From an uncultured Pelagibacteraceae bacterium (GTDB lineage Bacteria; Pseudomonadota; Alphaproteobacteria; Pelagibacterales; Pelagibacteraceae): DNA of 64,000 nt. Position 1 is the stretch's first letter, and every line of letters starts with the position of its first letter. A model generated the notes under the pieces. That model searched no databases, was not told where the DNA came from, and saw only the letters and a program-made list of their open reading frames with translations. Positions 14,446-63,287 of this stretch are shown here, one piece after another. The stretch lies in NCBI GenBank assembly GCA_902629935.1, contig CACOSU010000005.1, forward strand, positions 3,548 to 67,547, in the 5' to 3' direction. The position numbers and the translations under genes are program-made.

Positions 14446-15732
14446 TTATATTTTAAATAATTCTATACCTTTTACAAATGTATTGGTTACTTTTCCTTGA
14501 AGTTTCTTATCTTCAATTGAAGTATTTTTAGATTTAGAGATTAAATTTTCTTTCTTTACAATCCATGGTTTATTGATATCTACTATACAAAAATCTGCAT
14601 CATTACCAATTGACAGGTTTCCTTTATTTATATTTAATATTTTTGCAGGGTTAGAGGTTAAAGCTTGAATTATAGTTTCAAGTTTTAAAGATCCATTATG
14701 AAATAATTCTAAACTTAAAGATAACAATGTTTCAATACCAGATGCACCTGTTGCAGCTTGAGCAAAAGTCAACCTTTTAGATTCTTCATCTTCAGGTTTA
14801 TGGTCAGAAACAATTACATCGATTGTTTTATCTTTTAATCCTTGAACTAAGGACTCTCGATCCTCTTCTCTTCTCAGTGGAGGTGATAATTTTAAAAATG
14901 TTCTAAAATCTCCAATATCATTTTCATTTAATGAGAGATTATTTATTGATACACCGCAAGTAAATTTAACATTTTGTTTACGTTCTTTAATTATATCCAC
15001 AGACTTAGATGCCGATAGTTGAGATATATGATAACGACATTTAGTTTTTTCTAACAATGTTAGATCTCTTTCTATTATAATTCTCTCAGCAATATCTGGT
15101 ATGCTTGATAAGCCTAGTTTCGTTGCAATAATACCAGAATTAATCATTCCATTTTTAGCTAAATCGTAATCTTCAGCATGTTGCATTATAAGACATCCCA
15201 AATCTTTAGCAGAATTCATAATTCTAGACATAAGTCTAGTATTTTGAATTGTTTTCACTCCATCAGTAAATGCAATAATTCCTTTTTTAGCTAATAACCC
15301 AAATTCAGTCATATTGGTACCATCAGTGTTTTGAGTTAATGAAGCACAAGGAAAGATATTTATTTTAGACTTATCACGTCCTCTTCTTTTTAAAAAATCT
15401 ACAATTGATACATTATCTATAATTGGATCTGTATTAGGCATGGTTACAACAGAAGTTACTCCACCAGATAATGCAGCATTACTCAAAGTTTTAAAATTTT
15501 CTTTGTATTCATATCCAGGCTCGCCAACAAAAACTCTCATATCTACTATACCAGGAAATATATATTTACCCTTTAAGTCAGTAGGCTTTTCTCTAGTTGG
15601 TAAATTATTTGTATTTACCTTTTTTCCTATAGCCTCTATCTTTCCTTCTTCGCTAATTATTAATCCACCATTTTCGTTTATAGAGTTATGAGGATCTATA
15701 ATATTTGCATTTATAAAGTATTGTTTTTTCAT
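14446..15732 (-). CDS. pyrC: dihydroorotase-like protein (amidohydrolase fold) lacking the N-terminal HxH metal motif; PyrC'/PyrX-like
   Basis: Amidohydrolase layout with HAED and SDHKPE motifs retained. The position of the canonical D-x-H-x-H reads VDMRVFVGEPG. The stop abuts the pyrB stop-proximal end. Confidence 0.8.
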   Translation of the reverse strand: MKKQYFINANIIDPHNSINENGGLIISEEGKIEAIGKKVNTNNLPTREKPTDLKGKYIFPGIVDMRVFVGEPGYEYKENFKTLSNAALSGGVTSVVTMPNTDPIIDNVSIVDFLKRRGRDKSKINIFPCASLTQNTDGTNMTEFGLLAKKGIIAFTDGVKTIQNTRLMSRIMNSAKDLGCLIMQHAEDYDLAKNGMINSGIIATKLGLSSIPDIAERIIIERDLTLLEKTKCRYHISQLSASKSVDIIKERKQNVKFTCGVSINNLSLNENDIGDFRTFLKLSPPLRREEDRESLVQGLKDKTIDVIVSDHKPEDEESKRLTFAQAATGASGIETLLSLSLELFHNGSLKLETIIQALTSNPAKILNINKGNLSIGNDADFCIVDINKPWIVKKENLISKSKNTSIEDKKLQGKVTNTFVKGIELFKI

Positions 15733-16674
15733 TTATTCACAAAATATTTTTAAACATGCCATTCTTACTGCAACACCCAATTCAACTTGTTCCTTAATTA
15801 CGCTTTTGTTTATGTCGTCTGCTAATCTTGTATCAATTTCTATTCCTCTATTCATTGGACCAGGATGCATAATTAGAGCATCTGATTTTGCATGATCAAG
15901 TTTGTCAGGGGTTAATCCATAATATTCATAATACTCTCTATTCGATGAAAGATATGAACTGGTCATCCTTTCATTTTGCAATCTAAGCATCATCACAATA
16001 TCACAATCTTTGAGACCCTTTTTCATATCTGTAAAAGTATTTACACCAAATTTTTCAATTTCTTTTGGCATAAGATTAGATGGAGCAACTATATTAACCT
16101 CAGCTCCTAACATTGTAAGAAGATAAATATTTGATCTAGCTACTCTAGAATGAAGTATGTCTCCACATATGGCGATTTTTAATCCTTGAATTTTCTTTTT
16201 TCTATTTCTAATTGTTAATGCATCTAATAATGCTTGAGTAGGGTGTTCACGTCTACCATCACCAGCATTTAATACAACACAATTAACTTTTTGAGATAAT
16301 AGATTACACGCACCAGAATCTTGATGTCTGATCACAATTATATCAGGATGCATTGCGTTTAAGGTCATTGCTGTATCAATCAAAGTTTCACCTTTCTTTA
16401 TTGCAGAGTTCCCCATATTCATTGACATAACATCTGCACCAAGTCTTTTTCCAGCTAGTTCAAATGAACTTTGAGTTCTAGTTGATGGCTCAAAGAATAA
16501 GTTTATTTGTGTTTTACCTCTTAAAACATCTATTTTTTTATTTTTACTTTGATTTAATTTTATGAAGACTTCCGACTCATCAAGGATATAATTGATATCA
16601 CTAACTGATAAATCTTGTATACCTAACAGATGTTTTTGTGAGATTTTAATAGCTTTATTGATTTTAGTTGCCAT
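15733..16674 (-). CDS. pyrB: aspartate carbamoyltransferase catalytic subunit
   Basis: STRTQSSFE and HPTQALLD motifs. Start placed at MATKINK (16674). A longer ORF to 16713 would add a hydrophobic, non-conserved extension. Confidence 0.93.
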
Positions 16675-16716
16675 TAAAATTAACTCTATAACTATAAAGA
16701 CCTTAAATGGCAAGGA

Positions 16717-32297: not shown

Positions 32298-32767
32298 TGA
32301 ACAAAAAAACCAATTCTGGTTTGAAAATCATTTGTTTAAATAGAAAAGCTAGTTTTAACTATTTTTTTGAAGATCTATTTGAAGCTGGGGTTGTTTTAAA
32401 AGGATCTGAAATTAAATCTGTAAGAGAAGGCAAGGTTAATATTGCTGAGTCTTATGCTGTTGAAAAGGGAGGTGAAATTGTTTTAATTAATTCACATATA
32501 TCTCCATATAAGCAGGCTAGTTATTCTAATCATAATCCAACCGATGATAGGAAATTACTTCTTAATAAAAAAGAAATAAATAAATTAATTGGAAAAATGC
32601 ATAGAGATGGTTTCACATTAGTTCCAACAAAAATGTATTTTAAAAAAGGAAAGGCTAAAATAGAATTAGCTGTTGCTAAAGGAAAAAAACAATATGATAA
32701 AAGAGCAACAAAAAAAAATAGAGATTGGAACCGTGAAAAGGCAAGATACATTAGAAAATCAAGCTAA
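32297..32767 (+). CDS. smpB: SsrA-binding protein
   Basis: [29 protein letters not shown] signature, 156 aa. Confidence 0.95.
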
Positions 32768-33272: not shown

Positions 33273-35030
33273 ATGCTTAATTCAAATGAACTTATAAATA
33301 AAGTTAAAAATTATAATAAATTTCTAAATCCTGAAAGATTGGATAAAGCATATAATTTTGCTGTTAAAGCACATAAGAGTCAAAAAAGAGCTTCAGGTGA
33401 CCCTTATTCAGTTCACCCAATTGAGGTCGCAAATATTTTAACAGAATTAAAATTAGATAGCGCTACAATTGCAACAGGTCTATTGCATGACACTATTGAA
33501 GATACTTTTGCAACTTATGAAACTATAAAACAAGAATTCGGAGATGAGGTTGCTGATTTAGTTGATGGTGTAACAAAAATTTCTGCATTTGAAAATTCTG
33601 CTGGAGCTAATTCTAAAGTTGAGAATTTTCGAAAATTAATTTTAGCAACATCAAAAGACATCAGAGTTCTGTTAGTCAAAATTGCTGATCGACTACATAA
33701 TATGAGGACCATTAAAGCTATAAAAAAAGAAGATAAAAGAAAAAGAATAGCTCAAGAAACTATGGAAATTTATGCTCCATTAGCTGATAGAATGGGAATG
33801 CACAGAATAAGAGACGAGCTTGAAGATTTATCTTTTGAAATTTTAAATAACGATGCAAGAAAATTAATAAAAAAAAGACTTGATGAAATAAAATTGGATA
33901 GAAAAGATTTATTTGAAGAACAATCTTTTGAGTTAAGTGAAATTTTGAATGATAATGAAATTAATGCCGAGATTCATGGTAGAGAAAAAACTCCTTTTTC
34001 AATTTGGAGAAAAGTTCAAAAAAAAAGAGTTTCACTTGAACAAATAACAGACATTATCGGATTTAGGATAATTTTGAGAACTGTAGACGATTGTTACAAA
34101 ACTCTTGGTATTTTCCATAAAGAATGGAATTGTATACCAGGAAAATTTAAAGATTATATTTCTTCTCCAAAAATTAATGGTTATAAATCTATTCATACTT
34201 CTGTAATTGGTTCAAACAAAAAACCAATAGAAATTCAAATTAGAACTCAAGAAATGCATGAGTTTGCTGAAAGAGGTATTGCATCACATTGGCAGTATAA
34301 ATCTTCTGAAAAATTTAATTCTGTAAGCTGGAAGGAGTATGATTGGTTAAAAGATCTTGTTGAGATTATAGAAAAAAATGAAAATCCCGAAGACTCATAT
34401 GAGTACACAAAACTACAAATGTTTCAGGAAAACGTTTTTTGTTTCACACCAAAGGGATCGGTAATAAAATTACCAAAAGATGCCACAGCTATAGATTTTG
34501 CATACGCTGTTCATACCAAAATTGGTAATTCAGCAGTTGGTTGTGAAATAAATGGAAACAAAAGTGAACTACAATCTATTTTAAGAAATGGTGATCGTGT
34601 GAATATTATCACATCTAAAAATAATTCGCCTTCTCTTCATTGGATACCAACAACTAAAACAGGTAAAGCTAGAGCTGCAATAAGAAGATATTGGCATGAT
34701 AAAGGAGAGCAAAAAGAAGAAAAAACAAAAAAATACAATACTACCTTATGGATGTCATTGCCTGATAAGCCAGGACAATTAGGAGATATAAGCTCACTAA
34801 TTGGAAGTCATAAATTAAATATATCGGGTTTAGAAATGGTTGGTAAAAATCCCAATTATATTAATTTCAAATTTAAATTAATTATTAGAAACCTTAAGAA
34901 TTTTACTAATTTTATTGCAGAGCTAAAACAAAAGAGTATAAAATTTAAGATAATCAGACACGAAGAAAAAAGAAATGCTTTCACACAAAAAATCCTTAAA
35001 TATTTTAAAAAAAAACTAATGCATTATTAG
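33273..35030 (+). CDS. spoT: bifunctional (p)ppGpp synthetase/hydrolase (RSH family), compact 585 aa
   Basis: HD hydrolase motifs (HPIEVA, LLHDTIEDT), synthetase motifs (GYKSIHT, EIQIRTQEMH), TGS domain and a C-terminal ACT-like segment. Confidence 0.93.
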   Translation: MLNSNELINKVKNYNKFLNPERLDKAYNFAVKAHKSQKRASGDPYSVHPIEVANILTELKLDSATIATGLLHDTIEDTFATYETIKQEFGDEVADLVDGVTKISAFENSAGANSKVENFRKLILATSKDIRVLLVKIADRLHNMRTIKAIKKEDKRKRIAQETMEIYAPLADRMGMHRIRDELEDLSFEILNNDARKLIKKRLDEIKLDRKDLFEEQSFELSEILNDNEINAEIHGREKTPFSIWRKVQKKRVSLEQITDIIGFRIILRTVDDCYKTLGIFHKEWNCIPGKFKDYISSPKINGYKSIHTSVIGSNKKPIEIQIRTQEMHEFAERGIASHWQYKSSEKFNSVSWKEYDWLKDLVEIIEKNENPEDSYEYTKLQMFQENVFCFTPKGSVIKLPKDATAIDFAYAVHTKIGNSAVGCEINGNKSELQSILRNGDRVNIITSKNNSPSLHWIPTTKTGKARAAIRRYWHDKGEQKEEKTKKYNTTLWMSLPDKPGQLGDISSLIGSHKLNISGLEMVGKNPNYINFKFKLIIRNLKNFTNFIAELKQKSIKFKIIRHEEKRNAFTQKILKYFKKKLMHY

Positions 35031-35563
35031 AAGGTCACTTTGTTCTATCTTCAGGTCTCCATTCTGCAAAATATATTCAGTGCGCAAAACTTTTAAGTTT
35101 CCCAAATTTAGCCGATAAAATTTGTAAATCTTTATCAAAAAAAATTAAAAAAAAATTTAAAAAAATTGATTTAATACTAGCTCCGGCGATGGGTGGTGTA
35201 ATTATTGGATATGAAATAGGAAAATTACTTAAAAAAGAGACAATTTTTTGTGAAAGGGTAAATGGTAAATTTACCCTCAGACGAGGTTTTAATATTAAAA
35301 AAGGAGCAAGAGTATTAATTATAGAAGATGTTATCACTACAGGAAAATCAAGCTTAGAATGTGTAAAGTTAATTAAAAAATCAAAAGCAAGATTAATCGG
35401 ATATGCATGTATAATTGATCGATCGACAAAACAATCATTAAAAATAAAAACTGGAATTACATCTCATTTAAAAATAAACGTTCCGACTTATAAAGCAAAT
35501 AAATTGCCACTAGAACTTAAGACAACAGCAATAACTACTCCAGGAAGCAGATTTATTAAGTGA
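34975..35563 (+). CDS. pyrE: orotate phosphoribosyltransferase, reading frame interrupted inside an A9 run (35007-35015)
   Basis: The 35009-35563 frame encodes KKTNALLEGHFVLSSGLHS...VLIIEDVITTGKS (PRPP motif) but has no start codon before Met 35189. The frame one nt upstream gives ATG34975-MLSHKKSLNILKK up to the A run. Removing one A joins them as ...SLNILKKTNALLEGHF..., a normal PyrE N-terminus. Confidence 0.8.
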
Positions 35564-36282
35564 AAAGGTTAGGTGTAAATATTGATCATATTGCAACTCT
35601 ACGTAATGCTCGTGGAGAAAAACATCCTGATCCGATAAATGCAGCTAAAAAGGTTATAAGTTATGGAGCTGATTCTGTAACAATTCATTTAAGAGAAGAT
35701 AGAAGACATATAAATGATATTGATGCAAAAAAAATATGTGGTTTAAAAAATGTTCTCGTAAACCTTGAAATTTCTATGAATAAAGAAATTGTTAACAAAG
35801 CAATTAAGATAAAACCAAATTTTATATGTTTAGTTCCAGAAAATAGAAAAGAAATTACTACAGAAGGAGGTTTAAATATAAAAAATAACTATAACAAATT
35901 AAAAAAAATAATTAATAAATTTAAAAAAGCAAATATAAGAACAAGTTTATTCATTAATCCTTCTTCAAATGACATTAGACTTGCAAAGAAATTAAATGCC
36001 GATTGTGTTGAAATACATACTGGAAAATTAGCGAACTTAATTAAATCAAATAAAAATTATTCTAAAGAATTAATCAGAATTAAAAAAAGTACAAAATTAG
36101 GATCAAGTTTAAAAATAGAGGTTCATGCCGGCCATGGTTTGGACTATAAAACTACTAAAATATTAACAAAAATAATAGATATAGAAGAATATAACATTGG
36201 ACATTTTATAATTGGTGAATCTATATTTTATGGTCTTTCAAAAGTGATTAAAAACTTTAAAAAAATTATAAAAAATAAATGA
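35560..36282 (+). CDS. pdxJ: pyridoxine 5'-phosphate synthase (GTG start, GTGA overlap with the pyrE stop)
   Basis: LGVNIDHIATLRNARG...HLREDRRHI...EVHAGHGL motifs. Confidence 0.95.
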   Translation: MKRLGVNIDHIATLRNARGEKHPDPINAAKKVISYGADSVTIHLREDRRHINDIDAKKICGLKNVLVNLEISMNKEIVNKAIKIKPNFICLVPENRKEITTEGGLNIKNNYNKLKKIINKFKKANIRTSLFINPSSNDIRLAKKLNADCVEIHTGKLANLIKSNKNYSKELIRIKKSTKLGSSLKIEVHAGHGLDYKTTKILTKIIDIEEYNIGHFIIGESIFYGLSKVIKNFKKIIKNK

Positions 36283-53711: not shown

Positions 53712-55040
53712 TTAGCTAACAGCTTTTAAATTACCTTTTGAAGATTTATTTAATGCTTGATCTAGATCCTCAATAATATCATCAATATGTTCAATACCGA
53801 TACAAAGTCTTACATAACTTTGGGTAACACCTGATGCAGCTAGCTCTTTTTCATTTAATTGACTATGAGTTGTACTTGCTGGGTGAATTGCTAAACTTCT
53901 AGCATCACCAATATTAGCAACGTGATAGAACATCTTTAGAGACTCGATAAATTTTTTGCCAGCCTCAATTCCACCTTTAAGCTCAATACCAATCATTGGT
54001 CCATTTCCACCTCTAAGGTATTTTTTTGCTCTATCAGCAATGGGTTTATCGTGTTCTGTAGAATAAATAACTTTTGTAACTTCTTTGTGTTTTTTAAGAA
54101 AATCAACTACATACTCAGCGTTAGCGCAATGTTGTCTCATCCTTAAAGCAACTGTTTCAAGTCCTTGAATTATTGCAAAAGCATTATCTGGAGCCAGAGC
54201 TGATCCTAAGTCTCTCAATAAACAAACTCTTGCTCTAACAGCAAAGGGGACATTAGCACCAGTTAATTCAGGTACAGCTTTTCCCCAAATAACACCTCCA
54301 TAACTTGCATCTGGTTCATTAAATAATGGTTGTCTCCTAGGATCTGCAGTCCAATCAAAATTACCACTATCAACGATACTTCCAGCTACAGCTGTTCCAT
54401 GACCACCTATATATTTTGTGAGTGAATGTATAACTACAGCAGCTCCATGCTCTATTGGTTTACAAATTACGGGTGCTGCAGTGTTATCCATTATTAATGG
54501 TATGTTATATTTTCTTCCAATGTCAGAAACTTCCTTTATTGGAAAGACTCTTAAATATGGATTCGGTAAAGTTTCACCATAAAAAGCTCTAGTTTTGTCA
54601 TCTATTAACTTCTCAAAATTTTCAGGAATACTTGGGTCCGCATATCTTATTTCAATACCAAGCTTACTAAGTGTATGTGTAAATAAAGATACTGTTCCAC
54701 CATAAAGGTCAGTTGAACTAACTATATTATCTCCTGCCTGAGCAACGTTCAATACAGCAAAAGTTGATGCGGTTTGTCCTGATGAAACAGTTAAACATGC
54801 AAGTCCTCCTTCAAGTGCAGCAACTCTTTTTTCCAAAACGTCATTTGTTGGGTTCATAATTCGTGTGTAAATATTCCCAAACTCTTTAAGAGCGAAAAGG
54901 TTAGCTGCGTGCTCTGTATTGTTAAATTGGTATGATGTTGTCCTATAAATTGGAACAGCTACTGCATTCGTAGCTGGATCACTCCTATAGTCACCACCAT
55001 GTATAGCTATAGTTTCAGGGTTGTTTCTTTTTTTAGTCAT
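53712..55040 (-). CDS. metY: O-acetylhomoserine sulfhydrylase (aminocarboxypropyltransferase)
   Basis: Cys/Met-metabolism PLP family with PLP-Lys motif SLTKYIGGHGT. N-terminal PETIAIHGG. Confidence 0.94.
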   Translation of the reverse strand: MTKKRNNPETIAIHGGDYRSDPATNAVAVPIYRTTSYQFNNTEHAANLFALKEFGNIYTRIMNPTNDVLEKRVAALEGGLACLTVSSGQTASTFAVLNVAQAGDNIVSSTDLYGGTVSLFTHTLSKLGIEIRYADPSIPENFEKLIDDKTRAFYGETLPNPYLRVFPIKEVSDIGRKYNIPLIMDNTAAPVICKPIEHGAAVVIHSLTKYIGGHGTAVAGSIVDSGNFDWTADPRRQPLFNEPDASYGGVIWGKAVPELTGANVPFAVRARVCLLRDLGSALAPDNAFAIIQGLETVALRMRQHCANAEYVVDFLKKHKEVTKVIYSTEHDKPIADRAKKYLRGGNGPMIGIELKGGIEAGKKFIESLKMFYHVANIGDARSLAIHPASTTHSQLNEKELAASGVTQSYVRLCIGIEHIDDIIEDLDQALNKSSKGNLKAVS

Positions 55041-55044
55041 ATTA

Positions 55045-55100
55045 CTCCTTTTTTAGTGCTTCAACATTTTGTTAGGCGCACAATACAGTTCAAATGCCTA
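55045..55100 (-). promoter_or_regulatory. candidate SAM-V (SAM-II clan) riboswitch aptamer overlapping the metY Shine-Dalgarno
   Basis: Sense RNA: UAGGCAUUUGAACUGUAUUGUGCGCCUAACAAAAUGUUGAAGCACUAAAAAAGGAG. P1 is UAGGC/GCCUA. Loop GUGC (55081-55078) can pair with 3' GCAC (55059-55056), giving an H-type pseudoknot. A U-rich loop segment faces the A-rich tail that runs into AAGGAG, 4 nt before the AUG. Confidence 0.65.
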
Positions 55101-55125
55101 CCGATTATATAAATTTTAGAAAATT

Positions 55126-59465: not shown

Positions 59466-60317
59466 ATGAAGGCTATAATTTTGAATGCATCTGCTTGGAT
59501 GATTGTTCCAGTAATGGATGCATTTGCAAAGTATTTAAGTTCTTCAATGGATGTTCTTCAAATTACATGGGCTAGGTATTTTTTTACTGTAGTTTTTACT
59601 TTGTCGTTAATGATTATCTTTTATCGGAAATCATTAGTATGGACAAAAAAACCAACACTACAATTAATTAGAGGGTTAATTTTTGTTTTCTCAACTTATT
59701 TATTCTTTTATGCAATATCTGAAATATCTCTTCCTAAAGCGCTAACATTAGCTTTTGTCGCTCCAATTTGTGTCACAGCTTTATCTCCATTATTTTTAAA
59801 TGAGAAAGTAGGGGTGAAAAGGTGGACAGCTGTATTGTTAGGATTTATTGGAACAATGATAGTAATAAGACCGGGTTTTATCGAGCTTAATTTTGCTACA
59901 ATGGCCGCTTTAGGTTGTGGTATTTGTTATGGTTTTTATCTTATAATTACTAGGAAATTGAGTAGCTCAGATAATCCACTTTTAACACTTTTGTTATCAG
60001 GTTTGATAGGAACTATAATATTAACCTTATTTGTACCCTCAGTTTGGATTAGTCCTACTTCAAACCAATGGATTTTAATGGCTTTAATCGGCTTTATAGC
60101 CTCTGTAGCACATCTTTTTCTCATATTGTCACTCAAATACGCTGATGCATCTAAATTAGCTCCTTTGGGCTATACAGAGATAATTACAAATATACTTATT
60201 AGTTACTATTTCTTTCATGAATTACCTGATAATTGGACTTATTTAGGTTTATTTATTATCGTTCTTAGTGGTCTATATATTTCTAGAAGAGAGTATTTGC
60301 TAACTCATTCTACTTAA
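59466..60317 (+). CDS. EamA/DMT-superfamily transporter
   Basis: 283 aa, 10-TM profile with two EamA-like repeats. Confidence 0.75.
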   Translation: MKAIILNASAWMIVPVMDAFAKYLSSSMDVLQITWARYFFTVVFTLSLMIIFYRKSLVWTKKPTLQLIRGLIFVFSTYLFFYAISEISLPKALTLAFVAPICVTALSPLFLNEKVGVKRWTAVLLGFIGTMIVIRPGFIELNFATMAALGCGICYGFYLIITRKLSSSDNPLLTLLLSGLIGTIILTLFVPSVWISPTSNQWILMALIGFIASVAHLFLILSLKYADASKLAPLGYTEIITNILISYYFFHELPDNWTYLGLFIIVLSGLYISRREYLLTHST

Positions 60318-60852
60318 TAGTAAACAAATAGTAACTAATATATAAAGTAATACTTTAATATATATTACTAAACTATTGTAATTATTATATTATTTTATTT
60401 TATATAAATTGATAAATTAGTATAATGTCTGTTACTTATTTAGAAAATAAGCAGCTAATAACTATTATTTTAAATATATAAAGGCAAAATTGGGAAAAAT
60501 TTTTTATAAAATTAACAATAGTATTTAAAAGCGTTTAATATCAATGGTTTTTTAAGGTTTATAAGTGAACAAATTCATAATTTATATTTGGATAATTGAG
60601 TAGGGGACTAAAAATTCATAGAATTCCTTTGAAATTTAAGTCTTAAATGAGCCTTGATATCATTAAAAAGTAGAGCAATGCAATTATAGAATATATGTTT
60701 TAAACAGCCATAGAGGGGCTTTATTTTGGTTTATTACGATATATAGTACAACTGAAGGGTGCAAACCACTATTTCCTATTAAATAGGCTTAAATATCTAA
60801 AAATTGTTAATTTTACTGGTGTTTTTGACAATAAAATAGCACTAAAATGCCT

Positions 60853-61122
60853 CTAAATATCAACTTTTTCAGATCTCAATAAACGTAGCTTTGTTTTAAT
60901 TCCACCTCTACCAGAGTATCCACCTAGGCCTCCATCAGATCGAATTACTCTATGACATGGTATTTTGGGTGCAAATGGGTTTTTTCCACAAGCGTTAGCT
61001 ACAGCACGGGATGATTTAGGGCTTTTTATAGCAATAGCTACGTCTTTATATGTTTTTACAGTACCTTTTGGTATAGTTTTAAGGTATTTCCAGACTTTTA
61101 ATTGGAATTTAGTACCTTTCAT
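60853..61122 (-). CDS. ogt: methylated-DNA--protein-cysteine methyltransferase, C-terminal (catalytic) domain only
   Basis: FQLKVWKYLKTIPKGTVKTYKDVA...ACGKNPFAPKIPCHRVIRSDGGLGGY has the PCHR active-site Cys motif. ATG 61122 overlaps the upstream ORF stop as TAATG. The ORF is open to 61149. Confidence 0.88.
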   Translation of the reverse strand: MKGTKFQLKVWKYLKTIPKGTVKTYKDVAIAIKSPKSSRAVANACGKNPFAPKIPCHRVIRSDGGLGGYSGRGGIKTKLRLLRSEKVDI

Positions 61123-61310
61123 TAATAAAAATTTAAAATAATAAAGCAAACTATAAAAAAAATAGCTAAAATAGAGAGATAGATCGTTTCTAAGGTTTTT
61201 CCTGTTTTTTTATACTGAATAAAGCTCAATATAACGAAACCAATCGAAGTGATTAGAAAGTATATTGGTTCAATTACTCCATCTATGCCCATTTTCAAAT
61301 TATATTTCAT
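61122..61310 (-). CDS. small two-TM membrane protein, unknown function
   Basis: 62 aa with two hydrophobic helices. Its stop overlaps the ogt start, which suggests translational coupling. No recognisable family. Confidence 0.45.
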   Translation of the reverse strand: MKYNLKMGIDGVIEPIYFLITSIGFVILSFIQYKKTGKTLETIYLSILAIFFIVCFIILNFY

Positions 61311-61365
61311 CCTTGTTGAGCTCGCAATATCATTAATTGTCCTTAAAGATGATAAATTTTTTTAT

Positions 61366-61394
61366 TTGACATTAAAAAACACTTGATATATTAC
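61366..61394 (+). promoter_or_regulatory. candidate promoter of the recombinase gene
   Basis: Perfect TTGACA (61366-61371). -10-like TATATT/TATTAC follows 15-17 nt downstream, immediately ahead of a 19-bp imperfect palindrome (61398-61416). Confidence 0.3.
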
Positions 61395-61427
61395 TAATGA
61401 TAATTAATTGTTATCAATACTAATTAT

Positions 61428-62381
61428 ATGAATGAGTTGACTACAGATCTAAAATCGCTTCATGAAGCAACATTAAATAATCTTAAAAGCTCTAAAGCAA
61501 ATAATACTTTAAGAGCTTACAAATCAGACTTTAAAGACTTCGGTGCATTTTGTGCTAAGCATGGGTTGAGTTCATTACCAACAGAACCAAAAACAGTTTC
61601 ATTATACCTAACCTATCTTTCAAAAAACTCGAAAATAAGCACATTAAGACGAAGATTGGTATCAATAAGCATGGTACACAAACTAAAAGGGCTTTATTTA
61701 GATACTAAACATCCAATTATTATTGAAAATTTAATGGGTATAAGAAGGGTAAAAGGAAGTATTCAAAAAGGTAAAAAACCCATATTAATCAATCATTTAA
61801 AATCTATAATTAATGTTATAGATGAGCAAAAAATTGAAGATATTAAAAAATTTAGAGATAAATCAATTATCTTAATTGGCTTTGGAGGAGGATTTAGACG
61901 AACAGAGCTTATTTCAATTGATCATGAGGATTTAGAATTTGTACCTGAGGGACTTAAAATCATGATTAAAAGCTCAAAAACCGACCAATTTGGTGAAGGG
62001 ATGGTTAAAGGACTACCCTACTTCAATAATAAAACTTATTGCCCAATTGTTAATCTTAAAAAATATTTAGATATTGCTAAAATTAAATCTGGACCAATTT
62101 TTAGAAGATTTTCAAAAGGTTCATCATTAACAGGTAAAAGATTAACTGACCAATCTGTAGTTTTATTAATGAAAGAATATTTGCAATTAGCAGGTATCGA
62201 AAATAAAAATTTTGCTGGTCATAGTTTAAGGTCAGGTTTTGCAACAGTAGCTGCCGACTCAGGCGCAGATGAGAGAAGTATAATGGCTATGACGGGTCAT
62301 AAATCGACTCAAATGGTAAGAAGATATATTAGAGAAGCAAATATATTTAAAAATAATGCATTAAATAAAATTAAAATATAA
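61428..62381 (+). CDS. tyrosine site-specific recombinase/integrase, Cre-like architecture
   Basis: N-terminal SAM-like domain (TLRAYKSDFKDFGAFCAKHGL...EPKTVSLYLTYL). The catalytic set comprises GGFRRTEL (Arg), AGHSLRSGFAT (His-x-x-Arg) and GHKSTQMVRRYI (His...Tyr). Confidence 0.88.
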   Translation: MNELTTDLKSLHEATLNNLKSSKANNTLRAYKSDFKDFGAFCAKHGLSSLPTEPKTVSLYLTYLSKNSKISTLRRRLVSISMVHKLKGLYLDTKHPIIIENLMGIRRVKGSIQKGKKPILINHLKSIINVIDEQKIEDIKKFRDKSIILIGFGGGFRRTELISIDHEDLEFVPEGLKIMIKSSKTDQFGEGMVKGLPYFNNKTYCPIVNLKKYLDIAKIKSGPIFRRFSKGSSLTGKRLTDQSVVLLMKEYLQLAGIENKNFAGHSLRSGFATVAADSGADERSIMAMTGHKSTQMVRRYIREANIFKNNALNKIKI

Positions 62382-62387
62382 AAAAAA

Positions 62388-63287
62388 TTATATTGATATC
62401 CAAGACTCTGGCCAAAAATCTATATTATTTGAAGGATTAATATCTCTAGGTCTAATACATATTTTATTTTCATTATTAGATAACCAAGCACCCCACCAAC
62501 TAAAAGTAGATGGACCAATAATAAAATATTTACACTGTGTTAATAAATAAAAATCATTCAGGGTTTTATCTTCTAAATTGTTTACATATAAAAATTCATT
62601 AGTTGGAAAATATCTTTCAAGATTTGTAAAATCATTGCTCCATAAAAGAAATTTTGGATTATGTACTTTAGATTTAATAAATTTGATTGATTGATAGATA
62701 TAATCTACAGTTTTAGCAACAAAATCTTGAGATTTATTAATTGAATTTTGCTCGAACTTATTAGTTATTCTTTCAGAGTATCGATTTTGTCTAACACTTA
62801 TAGATACAACATTATGTTTTTTAATAATATCTAAGTATTTATTATTACTCATATTTTTTTTAAATGAGAATTGATTAAAAAGATCATTTCTATAGTCTAG
62901 AAAATATTTTTCTGACTCAAAATTACCATCGATATAAATTTTATCATTAAAATTATCTAATTTAATAGGACTAAATTTTGTTAATTTATTTTTATCTTTT
63001 GATTCAAATAAAAAGGTTTTTTTTTTTTTAAAAAAATCACTTTTAATTTTAATCTTTTTTATTAGGTTTCTGTAATTATTAGAAAATATCCATTTTGAAG
63101 GTGCTATTTTAGATGATATGTTAAAATTATCGAGCATAAATGATCTGATATTATTTTTATAGTATCCACTGTATGGGTCTAAAAATAAATTGAGGTTATA
63201 TTTCTTTGAAATTGCATAAGCATTTGCATACATAAACAGTTGATTACCCAATCCTTCAGAAATCTTTGCAATAATTAATTTCTTCAT
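62388..63287 (-). CDS. glycosyltransferase family 11-like (alpha-1,2-fucosyltransferase fold) with divergent motif I
   Basis: N-terminal GLGNQLFMYANAYA and C-terminal IIGPSTFSWWGAWL are GT11 hallmarks. The HxRRGDY position reads ISVRQNRY. Confidence 0.7.
   Translation of the reverse strand: MKKLIIAKISEGLGNQLFMYANAYAISKKYNLNLFLDPYSGYYKNNIRSFMLDNFNISSKIAPSKWIFSNNYRNLIKKIKIKSDFFKKKKTFLFESKDKNKLTKFSPIKLDNFNDKIYIDGNFESEKYFLDYRNDLFNQFSFKKNMSNNKYLDIIKKHNVVSISVRQNRYSERITNKFEQNSINKSQDFVAKTVDYIYQSIKFIKSKVHNPKFLLWSNDFTNLERYFPTNEFLYVNNLEDKTLNDFYLLTQCKYFIIGPSTFSWWGAWLSNNENKICIRPRDINPSNNIDFWPESWISI

Follow-up and report, generated by a model that had tools for sequence, protein, structure and literature searches.

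Changes of reading frame within bacterial genes have been described in several settings. Some are programmed, and the +1 site of prfB and the -1 site of dnaX (A AAA AAG) are well-known examples. Others arise in transcription: bacterial RNA polymerases slip on runs of A or T, where single-nucleotide insertions climb exponentially with run length (PMC5574713), and runs of nine A's or nine T's yield mRNAs with added bases, slippage on A9/T9 runs in dnaX being mentioned in the same work (PMC5009743). Rescue by slippage has been proposed for the poly(A) and poly(T) frameshifts of Blochmannia, and earlier endosymbiont work found about 30% full-length transcripts; certain frameshifts of endosymbionts are shared by several populations or species, and heterogeneous transcripts have been reported (PMC3017870). 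Finally, frame breaks may be introduced by assembly, and in Nanopore assemblies of Pelagibacter an average of 26 homopolymer frameshifts per genome stem from the assembly itself ('Pelagibacter, resolved', a 2026 preprint, bioRxiv 10.64898/2026.04.03.716430). Here we describe a pyrE gene whose frame is broken at a run of nine A's and compare it with these systems. We put at about 0.65 the probability that the ninth A is a technical homopolymer miscount in a draft contig and that the true gene is an ordinary pyrE with eight A's (A8).

The window, that is, the whole stretch of 64,000 nucleotides that we analyzed, has a G+C content of 28.3%. The genes around the break are dapA, smpB, folK, spoT, pyrE, pdxJ, acpS, lepB, rnc, and recO, an order that, like the composition, fits SAR11/Pelagibacter, and all related loci that we found are from Pelagibacter. 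The features discussed below are the following.

14446-15732, minus strand: pyrC, intact.
15733-16713, minus strand: pyrB, intact.
33273-35030, plus strand: spoT/relA-family gene, 585 aa, with the domains HD_4, RelA_SpoT, TGS, and ACT_4.
34975-35563, plus strand: pyrE (orotate phosphoribosyltransferase) as read with A8, 195 codons, interrupted by one extra A.
34975-35019, plus strand: short open reading frame (ORF), MLSHKKSLNILKKN and a stop, encoding the 13 residues of the genuine PyrE N-terminus, cut off in the other frame.
35007-35015, plus strand: A9 homopolymer, at which the frame breaks by +1; in relatives the run is A8 or interrupted.
35009-35188, plus strand: open PyrE body lacking a start (KKTNALLEGHF to LAPA), about 60 conserved residues including ALLEGHF.
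35147-35155, plus strand: second A9 run within pyrE, in frame (KKK) and common to many relatives.
35189-35563, plus strand: ORF of 124 aa corresponding to the C-terminal two-thirds of PyrE, including its PRPP motif VLIIEDVITTGKS; the gene call recorded for the source contig.

A preliminary description of this DNA had placed a frame break inside an A9 run, and the layout that it proposed is the one we find. The run at 35007-35015 has nine A's and the coordinates were exact. The ATG at 34975, which lies inside spoT, opens a frame that encodes the N-terminus and meets a TAA at 35017-35019, and the sequence of this short ORF agrees with the N-terminus of orthologs of 195 aa. One frame over, the PyrE body follows a TAA at 35006-35008 and is open from 35009; no ATG, GTG, or TTG occurs in this frame between 35009 and 35189, and the first canonical start is the ATG at 35189. 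We considered a start at a near-cognate codon and rejected it, as the first one is an ATT (around 35075) and its use would cost the ALLEGHF segment. The 124-aa PyrE (P0122) is the protein recorded for the source, a 78,153-nt contig at NCBI, in which SpoT has 585 aa.

The roughly 70 genes of the window tile it almost without gaps, and pyrE is the only broken one. The hole of 158 nt between the end of spoT and the called pyrE (35031-35188) is the only gap in the window due to a broken gene, in a stretch where the usual spacing is about 4 nt. The remaining gaps hold a tRNA-Ser, rpmF, a SAM-V riboswitch, and a low-coding stretch beside an integrase-like ORF. As had been claimed, pyrB and the pyrC-like gene are intact.

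The expectation that removal of one A would join the two frames was borne out. The product has 195 aa and matches the profile TIGR01367 (pyrE_Therm, an NCBIfam equivalog with a curated cutoff of 150.25 bits) end to end, with 215 bits over profile positions 3-187 of 187, so that by both score and full-length coverage it belongs to this PyrE family. The 124-aa ORF from 35189 obtains 126.8 bits, under the cutoff. The repaired protein has what defines a type I phosphoribosyltransferase, namely a PF00156 domain (residues 43-158), the PRPP motif, and the conserved N-terminal segment. A solved OPRTase (PDB 4paw) aligns to it from residue 13 onward (ALLEGHFVLSSGLHS against ALLEGHFLLSSGFHS in 4paw). 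Since the segment KTNALLEGHFVLSSGLHS also aligns to 4paw, the approximately 70 residues that are absent from the 124-aa ORF fall in a region conserved with the solved enzyme.

We then compared the run length at this junction among relatives, the comparison of A8 with A9 that the preliminary description had suggested. A genome scan gave 80 Pelagibacter loci, and in each of them the whole query of 195 residues is matched without a change of frame, across 585 bases. The run could be read in 79 of them, and all have either TTTT-A8-CT or an interrupted run (AAAAAAGA, AAGAAAAA, AAGAAAGA); none has A9. The exact 28-mer with A9 has no match across the whole metagenome collection, and at least 120 metagenome stretches fit a degenerate pattern allowing A8 or A9, all of them A8 among the matches listed. 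Altogether, A9 is found at the junction in none of the 199 related sequences readable there (79 genome loci and the 120 metagenome matches listed).

Protein lengths tell the same story. We searched 5.8 billion protein clusters, and the listed near-homologs that are full-length have 195 aa and are at most 94% identical to the repaired PyrE. The only length exceptions among those listed are two proteins of 240 and 245 aa (P0002 and P0001), which are the top-scoring matches; they carry an internal duplication and come from chimeric assemblies, and we do not regard them as true variants. Orthologs starting at the equivalent of Met-35189 would have removed the need for any frameshift, but the close homologs are 195 aa long and begin with MLSHKKSLNILKKTNALLEGHF or a close variant. 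Three 124-aa proteins do occur in the same 90% cluster, and none of them counts as evidence for a short PyrE: one is the call from the window itself, one comes from a single Sanger read whose 5' end is junk (L201), and one from a metagenome contig of 530 nt (L202) that is frameshifted at the second A run, where it has A8. The PyrE family needs its N-terminus, and this is encoded in one frame in the relatives. Among full-length metagenome copies, 96 of 99 have an intact pyrE, and the three disruptions are sporadic and non-recurrent. Contig L129 loses the pyrE frame at the second A run, and L103 has an in-frame TGA.

These comparisons reach across species: the closest DNA relatives are about 92-93% identical (92.8% for the nearest), which is under species level, and "private" therefore means private among the sampled species and not among strains of the same one. 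The exact sequences of the repaired PyrE (195 aa) and of the corresponding SpoT (581 aa) are absent from a collection of 15 billion proteins, and an exact look-up found no contigs encoding the window's own SpoT, 124-aa PyrE, PdxJ, or AcpS.

The distribution of the run bears most directly on the idea of a programmed signal, either +1 ribosomal frameshifting or transcriptional slippage, that would tune PyrE output or couple it to the translation of SpoT. The one observation in its favor is that a gene overlap coincides here with a slippery run of A's that is followed, two codons later, by a stop in the 0 frame. The slippery run of lysine codons and the nearby 0-frame stop recall the sites of prfB, dnaX, and the A9 site of Thermus dnaX. 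Unlike the prfB and dnaX sites, however, this one is not conserved, has no Shine-Dalgarno-like or structural stimulator, and belongs to a gene that needs no shift in the relatives, which encode PyrE in a single frame. The frameshift is seen in none of the 199 related sequences read (for metagenomes, the matches listed), and this lack of A9 conservation leads us to reject conserved or programmed frameshifting. The local sequence agrees: re-pairing in the +1 frame is impossible at AAC, the last but one codon of the 0 frame, and there is no Shine-Dalgarno-like motif in the upstream sequence TCCTTAAATATTTT. RNA structure in the 95 nt after the run (-8.1 kcal/mol) is no better than in shuffled sequences (mean -10.1 kcal/mol, z = +0.79). 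Hence, neither of the two hallmarks of a programmed site, conservation among orthologs and a stimulatory element, is found, and we give this explanation next to no weight. Near the run we found neither a terminator nor, on the coding strand, a promoter-like site, and a literature search on Pelagibacter pyrE returned nothing relevant.

Apart from the extra A, the gene is normal, with neither decay nor relaxed constraint. Measured against its 40 closest sequences, the repaired pyrE has a dN/dS of 0.083, and the value among those relatives is 0.071 (5-95% range 0.040-0.121). The private substitutions are 0 synonymous and 1 nonsynonymous (P185A); because alleles are shared across the population, these yield no informative terminal-branch dN/dS. 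A comparison of 5.9 kb with 28 loci of at least 90% identity over at least 3 kb shows no private indel of the window other than the extra A. Only one further indel is consistent, a natural variation between A6 and A7 at the pdxJ stop, 1.2 kb downstream; it is harmless, and some relatives have the same state as the window. The window has 25 A/T runs of at least nine bases, and 24 of them leave the ORFs undisturbed. One of them, the second A9 run of pyrE, is an internal control: this gene tolerates A9 runs.

The state of the gene makes it improbable that the extra A is real and inactivating, in which case pyrE would be a fresh pseudogene and the cell would live on salvaged pyrimidines or be a doomed mutant caught by single-cell or dilution sampling. 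The frame is indeed broken, and the product from Met-35189 would lack the N-terminal residues, including ALLEGHF, that align to 4paw; the in-frame TGA of L103 indicates that null alleles, or errors, turn up sporadically. Yet pyrE carries no further lesion, its constraint is not relaxed, the pyrB and pyrC genes of the window are whole, and the related loci keep pyrE, with sporadic and non-recurrent disruptions in three metagenome contigs.

What is observed, then, is a break located exactly at the run, an A9 that is private, and a gene that is otherwise intact, and the origin of the extra A is most likely technical rather than biological. The locus would be an ordinary, functional Pelagibacter pyrE of 195 codons, whose start overlaps the 3' end of spoT by 44 nt. 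In the genome of the living population, the run at 35007-35015 would lack its ninth A, which would have entered when the DNA was amplified or sequenced or when the 78-kb draft contig was assembled or polished. With A8, PyrE would begin with MLSHKKSLNILKKTNALLEGHF, SpoT would end in KYFKKN, and any recoding would be superfluous.

Several observations point to such a miscount. A9 is private in the genomes and in the metagenome matches listed, the homologs have 195 aa, pyrE shows no decay, the lesion is isolated, pyrB and pyrC are intact, and the source is a single draft contig at NCBI (78,153 nt). This is what defines an artefact of this type: a conserved gene is broken where one assembly alone differs by a single base in the length of a long homopolymer. 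Isolated breaks at A runs of the same gene are also found in other assemblies (L202 and L129).

The likeness to the errors described in draft Pelagibacter assemblies is close. A typical Pelagibacter genome has about 1.3-1.4 Mb, and 26 frameshifts in a genome of this size correspond to roughly 1.3 per 64 kb, or about one per 50 kb; a source that was error-prone or amplified would be expected to leave one such event in the window. As in those assemblies, a single-base indel in a long A run splits a conserved gene into a truncated ORF and an uncalled gap of about 160 nt, with the sequence otherwise perfect. The locus differs in that the window is clean but for one break; the published count (bioRxiv 10.64898/2026.04.03.716430) refers to Nanopore assemblies.

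Other points argue against a miscount. A consensus error at an A9 run would be unusual if the contig came from deep Illumina or Sanger sequencing of an isolate. The relatives are only about 92-93% identical, and homopolymer length varies naturally at the pdxJ stop (A6/A7). Moreover, SAR11 bacteria lack MutS and MutL (PMC12374537), which implies that true homopolymer indels should arise often.

A real, recent, and private insertion, all versions taken together, is therefore plausible, although we regard it as less likely than a miscount. Rather less likely is the specific version in which replication slippage recently turned A8 into A9 in this cell or strain, altering the tail of SpoT and cutting off the first 13 codons of PyrE, with some PyrE still made by chance slippage. 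RNA polymerase slippage might then produce A8 mRNAs, encoding the native PyrE of 195 aa, or A11 mRNAs, encoding 196 aa with an extra Lys, and a +1 slide of tRNA-Lys on AAA-AAA-A might give the same native PyrE. The products computed for each run length are given below.

A8 mRNA: from ATG 34975, native PyrE of 195 aa; from the spoT start, SpoT of 581 aa (ending KYFKKN).
A9 mRNA, as in the DNA: from ATG 34975, 14 aa; from the spoT start, SpoT of 585 aa (ending KKKLMHY).
A10 mRNA: from ATG 34975, 18 aa; from the spoT start, a SpoT-PyrE fusion of 763 aa.
A11 mRNA: from ATG 34975, PyrE of 196 aa (extra Lys); from the spoT start, SpoT of 582 aa.

Predicted peptides of a PyrE with the native start are NILKKTNALLEGHF and NILKKKTNALLEGHF, and one predicted for the SpoT-PyrE fusion is YFKKKTNALLEGHF.

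An insertion with chance rescue has some appeal. An A9 run is within the range of lengths on which bacterial RNA polymerases slip (PMC5574713, PMC5009743), the absence of MutSL in SAR11 would favor new indels, one of which might be caught by sampling a single cell or a dilution culture, the window offers 25 A/T runs of at least nine bases, and pyrE is otherwise intact with its pathway partners pyrB and pyrC present. Against this, the A9 allele is seen nowhere else, and so it is not maintained by selection, and a deleterious allele should be short-lived at a very large effective population size. The events that restore the frame (-1 and +2) are also the rarer ones: among the insertions made in transcription 80% are +1, and deletions at this step are seldom tied to homopolymer runs (PMC5574713), so that frame-restoring transcripts would be a minority. 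The most frequent slippage product would instead be A10, with its fusion of 763 aa. Nor is there a downstream RNA structure that could stimulate chance rescue (z = +0.79, as above). That the A9 is real and that the cell makes enough PyrE through A8 or A11 mRNAs, an A10 SpoT-PyrE fusion, or ribosome sliding seems to us quite doubtful.

The systems to compare in that case are the poly(A) frameshifts of Buchnera and Blochmannia (cited in PMC3017870 and PMC5009743). The resemblance lies in an A run of at least nine bases, in a gene of an essential pathway with no other decay, and in an AT-rich, reduced genome that has lost mismatch repair. Like them, pyrE has an indel in an A/T run of at least nine bases and is otherwise intact under purifying selection. 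However, it does not persist across strains or populations as some of the endosymbiont frameshifts do; it is a singleton, in a comparison whose nearest genomes are of other species, and it is known from DNA alone, whereas heterogeneous transcripts were reported in endosymbionts (PMC3017870). SAR11 bacteria are also free-living with very large populations, in which such alleles should be purged. If rescue did take place, the rescued poly(A) frameshifts of endosymbionts would extend to a free-living, mismatch-repair-deficient, AT-rich bacterium with many A/T runs of at least nine bases. More generally, a real extra A would make the locus a small but useful case of how a homopolymer-rich free-living bacterium of this kind copes with frameshifts in essential genes.

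Of the three readings offered in the preliminary description, the homopolymer error is thus the favored one, slippage is left only as an accidental and non-conserved rescue, and a +1 ribosomal frameshifting site is unsupported. Most probably we are dealing with an artefact; at the very most, an ordinary gene carries a private mutation. The locus does not represent a new kind of system. In practice, the locus is best annotated as pyrE with a suspected homopolymer error and not as a pseudogene, an auxotrophy, or a recoded gene. It would probably be an error to score OPRTase as absent from this genome in a metabolic reconstruction.

The extra A also accounts for the appearance of spoT, which crosses the A9 run in the third frame. 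Its product ends in KYFKKKLMHY in the window and in KYFKKN with A8. The preliminary description had reported an overlap of 56 nt between pyrE and spoT. The overlap is real, and the start of pyrE inside the 3' end of spoT is conserved, but the length of 56 nt is obtained only with A9: in 184 of 186 related loci the two genes overlap by 44 nt and SpoT ends in KYFKKN or a close variant. The longer overlap and the KKKLMHY tail are by-products of the extra A. Since ACT_4, the last recognized domain of SpoT, ends at residue 553, the altered tail lies outside the recognized domains and probably has little effect.

Gene overlaps are a feature of streamlined SAR11 genomes, and four-nucleotide overlaps of the ATGA type are common in the window. 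The placement of the pyrE start in the 3' end of spoT, out of frame, follows this trend and differs in its length, 44 nt against the usual 1-8 nt in this window. This conserved overlap between spoT and pyrE is a minor case of dual coding in a streamlined genome.

The overlap between spoT and pyrE, compared across related Pelagibacter genome and metagenome loci (L001-L200), is a conserved feature of these genomes.

34975-35018: out-of-frame overlap, 44 nt, of the 3' end of spoT and the 5' end of pyrE

The overlap is kept in 184 of the 186 Pelagibacter loci and is far longer than the overlaps typical of the window (1-8 nt). The A run that it contains varies among loci, yet both frames are accommodated in every case, with SpoT reading KKN* or KKD* and PyrE reading LKKT or LRKT.

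A-run length also varies further downstream, as seen in a comparison with 28 close loci.

36269-36282: junction of the pdxJ stop and the acpS start, with an A-run length polymorphism

The window and 3 of the 28 close loci carry ATAAAAAATAAATGA (A6), where the C-terminus of PdxJ is KNK* and the gene overlaps acpS by 4 nt (ATGA). The remaining 25 loci have A7 or AAAAAAG, a PdxJ C-terminus of KK*, and a TAA directly 5' of the acpS ATG. This difference is a natural polymorphism, and genuine variation in A-run length is present in the lineage, at a harmless site.

Within pyrE itself, a second A run is common to many relatives.

35147-35155: second A9 run within pyrE, in frame (KKK); corresponding run in L202 (about 47-54) and in L129

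Two unrelated metagenome contigs, L202 and L129, have a frameshift at this run, and these are either errors or rare alleles. A different lesion is found in the metagenome contig L103 (Ga0129343_1075165), where the conserved Cys codon of pyrE is replaced by an in-frame TGA (YIQ*AK) while the rest of the gene is intact. Three proteins from public metagenome gene calls were set aside as database artefacts: P0001 and P0002, PyrE sequences that are chimeric assemblies since about 45-50 aa are duplicated within them, and P0127, whose N-terminus (MCIRDR) is a translated remnant of a Nextera adapter.

A further overlap was produced by the mechanical call of folK.

32673-32767: start of folK as mechanically called (TTG at 32673), region of overlap with smpB

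This ORF overlaps smpB by 95 nt. It matches the folK profile from residue 34 onwards but not before, and the real start is therefore probably further downstream than this TTG.

Elsewhere in the window, a SAM-V riboswitch lies directly upstream of a 442-aa minus-strand gene (53712-55040).

55042-55108, minus: SAM-V riboswitch (RF01826), 77.6 bits

The lowest coding density of the window is found at 60317-61428, including a gap of 535 nt without any ORF of at least 30 aa; this stretch may be the border of a variable or integrated region.

60853-61149, minus: MGMT-like ORF, 98 aa
between the MGMT-like and the tyrosine-recombinase-like ORFs: hydrophobic ORF, 62 aa
61428-62381, plus: tyrosine-recombinase-like ORF, 317 aa
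63017-63029, beyond that stretch: T13 run (coding strand: A13), within a 299-aa minus-strand ORF (62388-63287)

The T13 run, the longest homopolymer of the window, leaves the 299-aa ORF unbroken.
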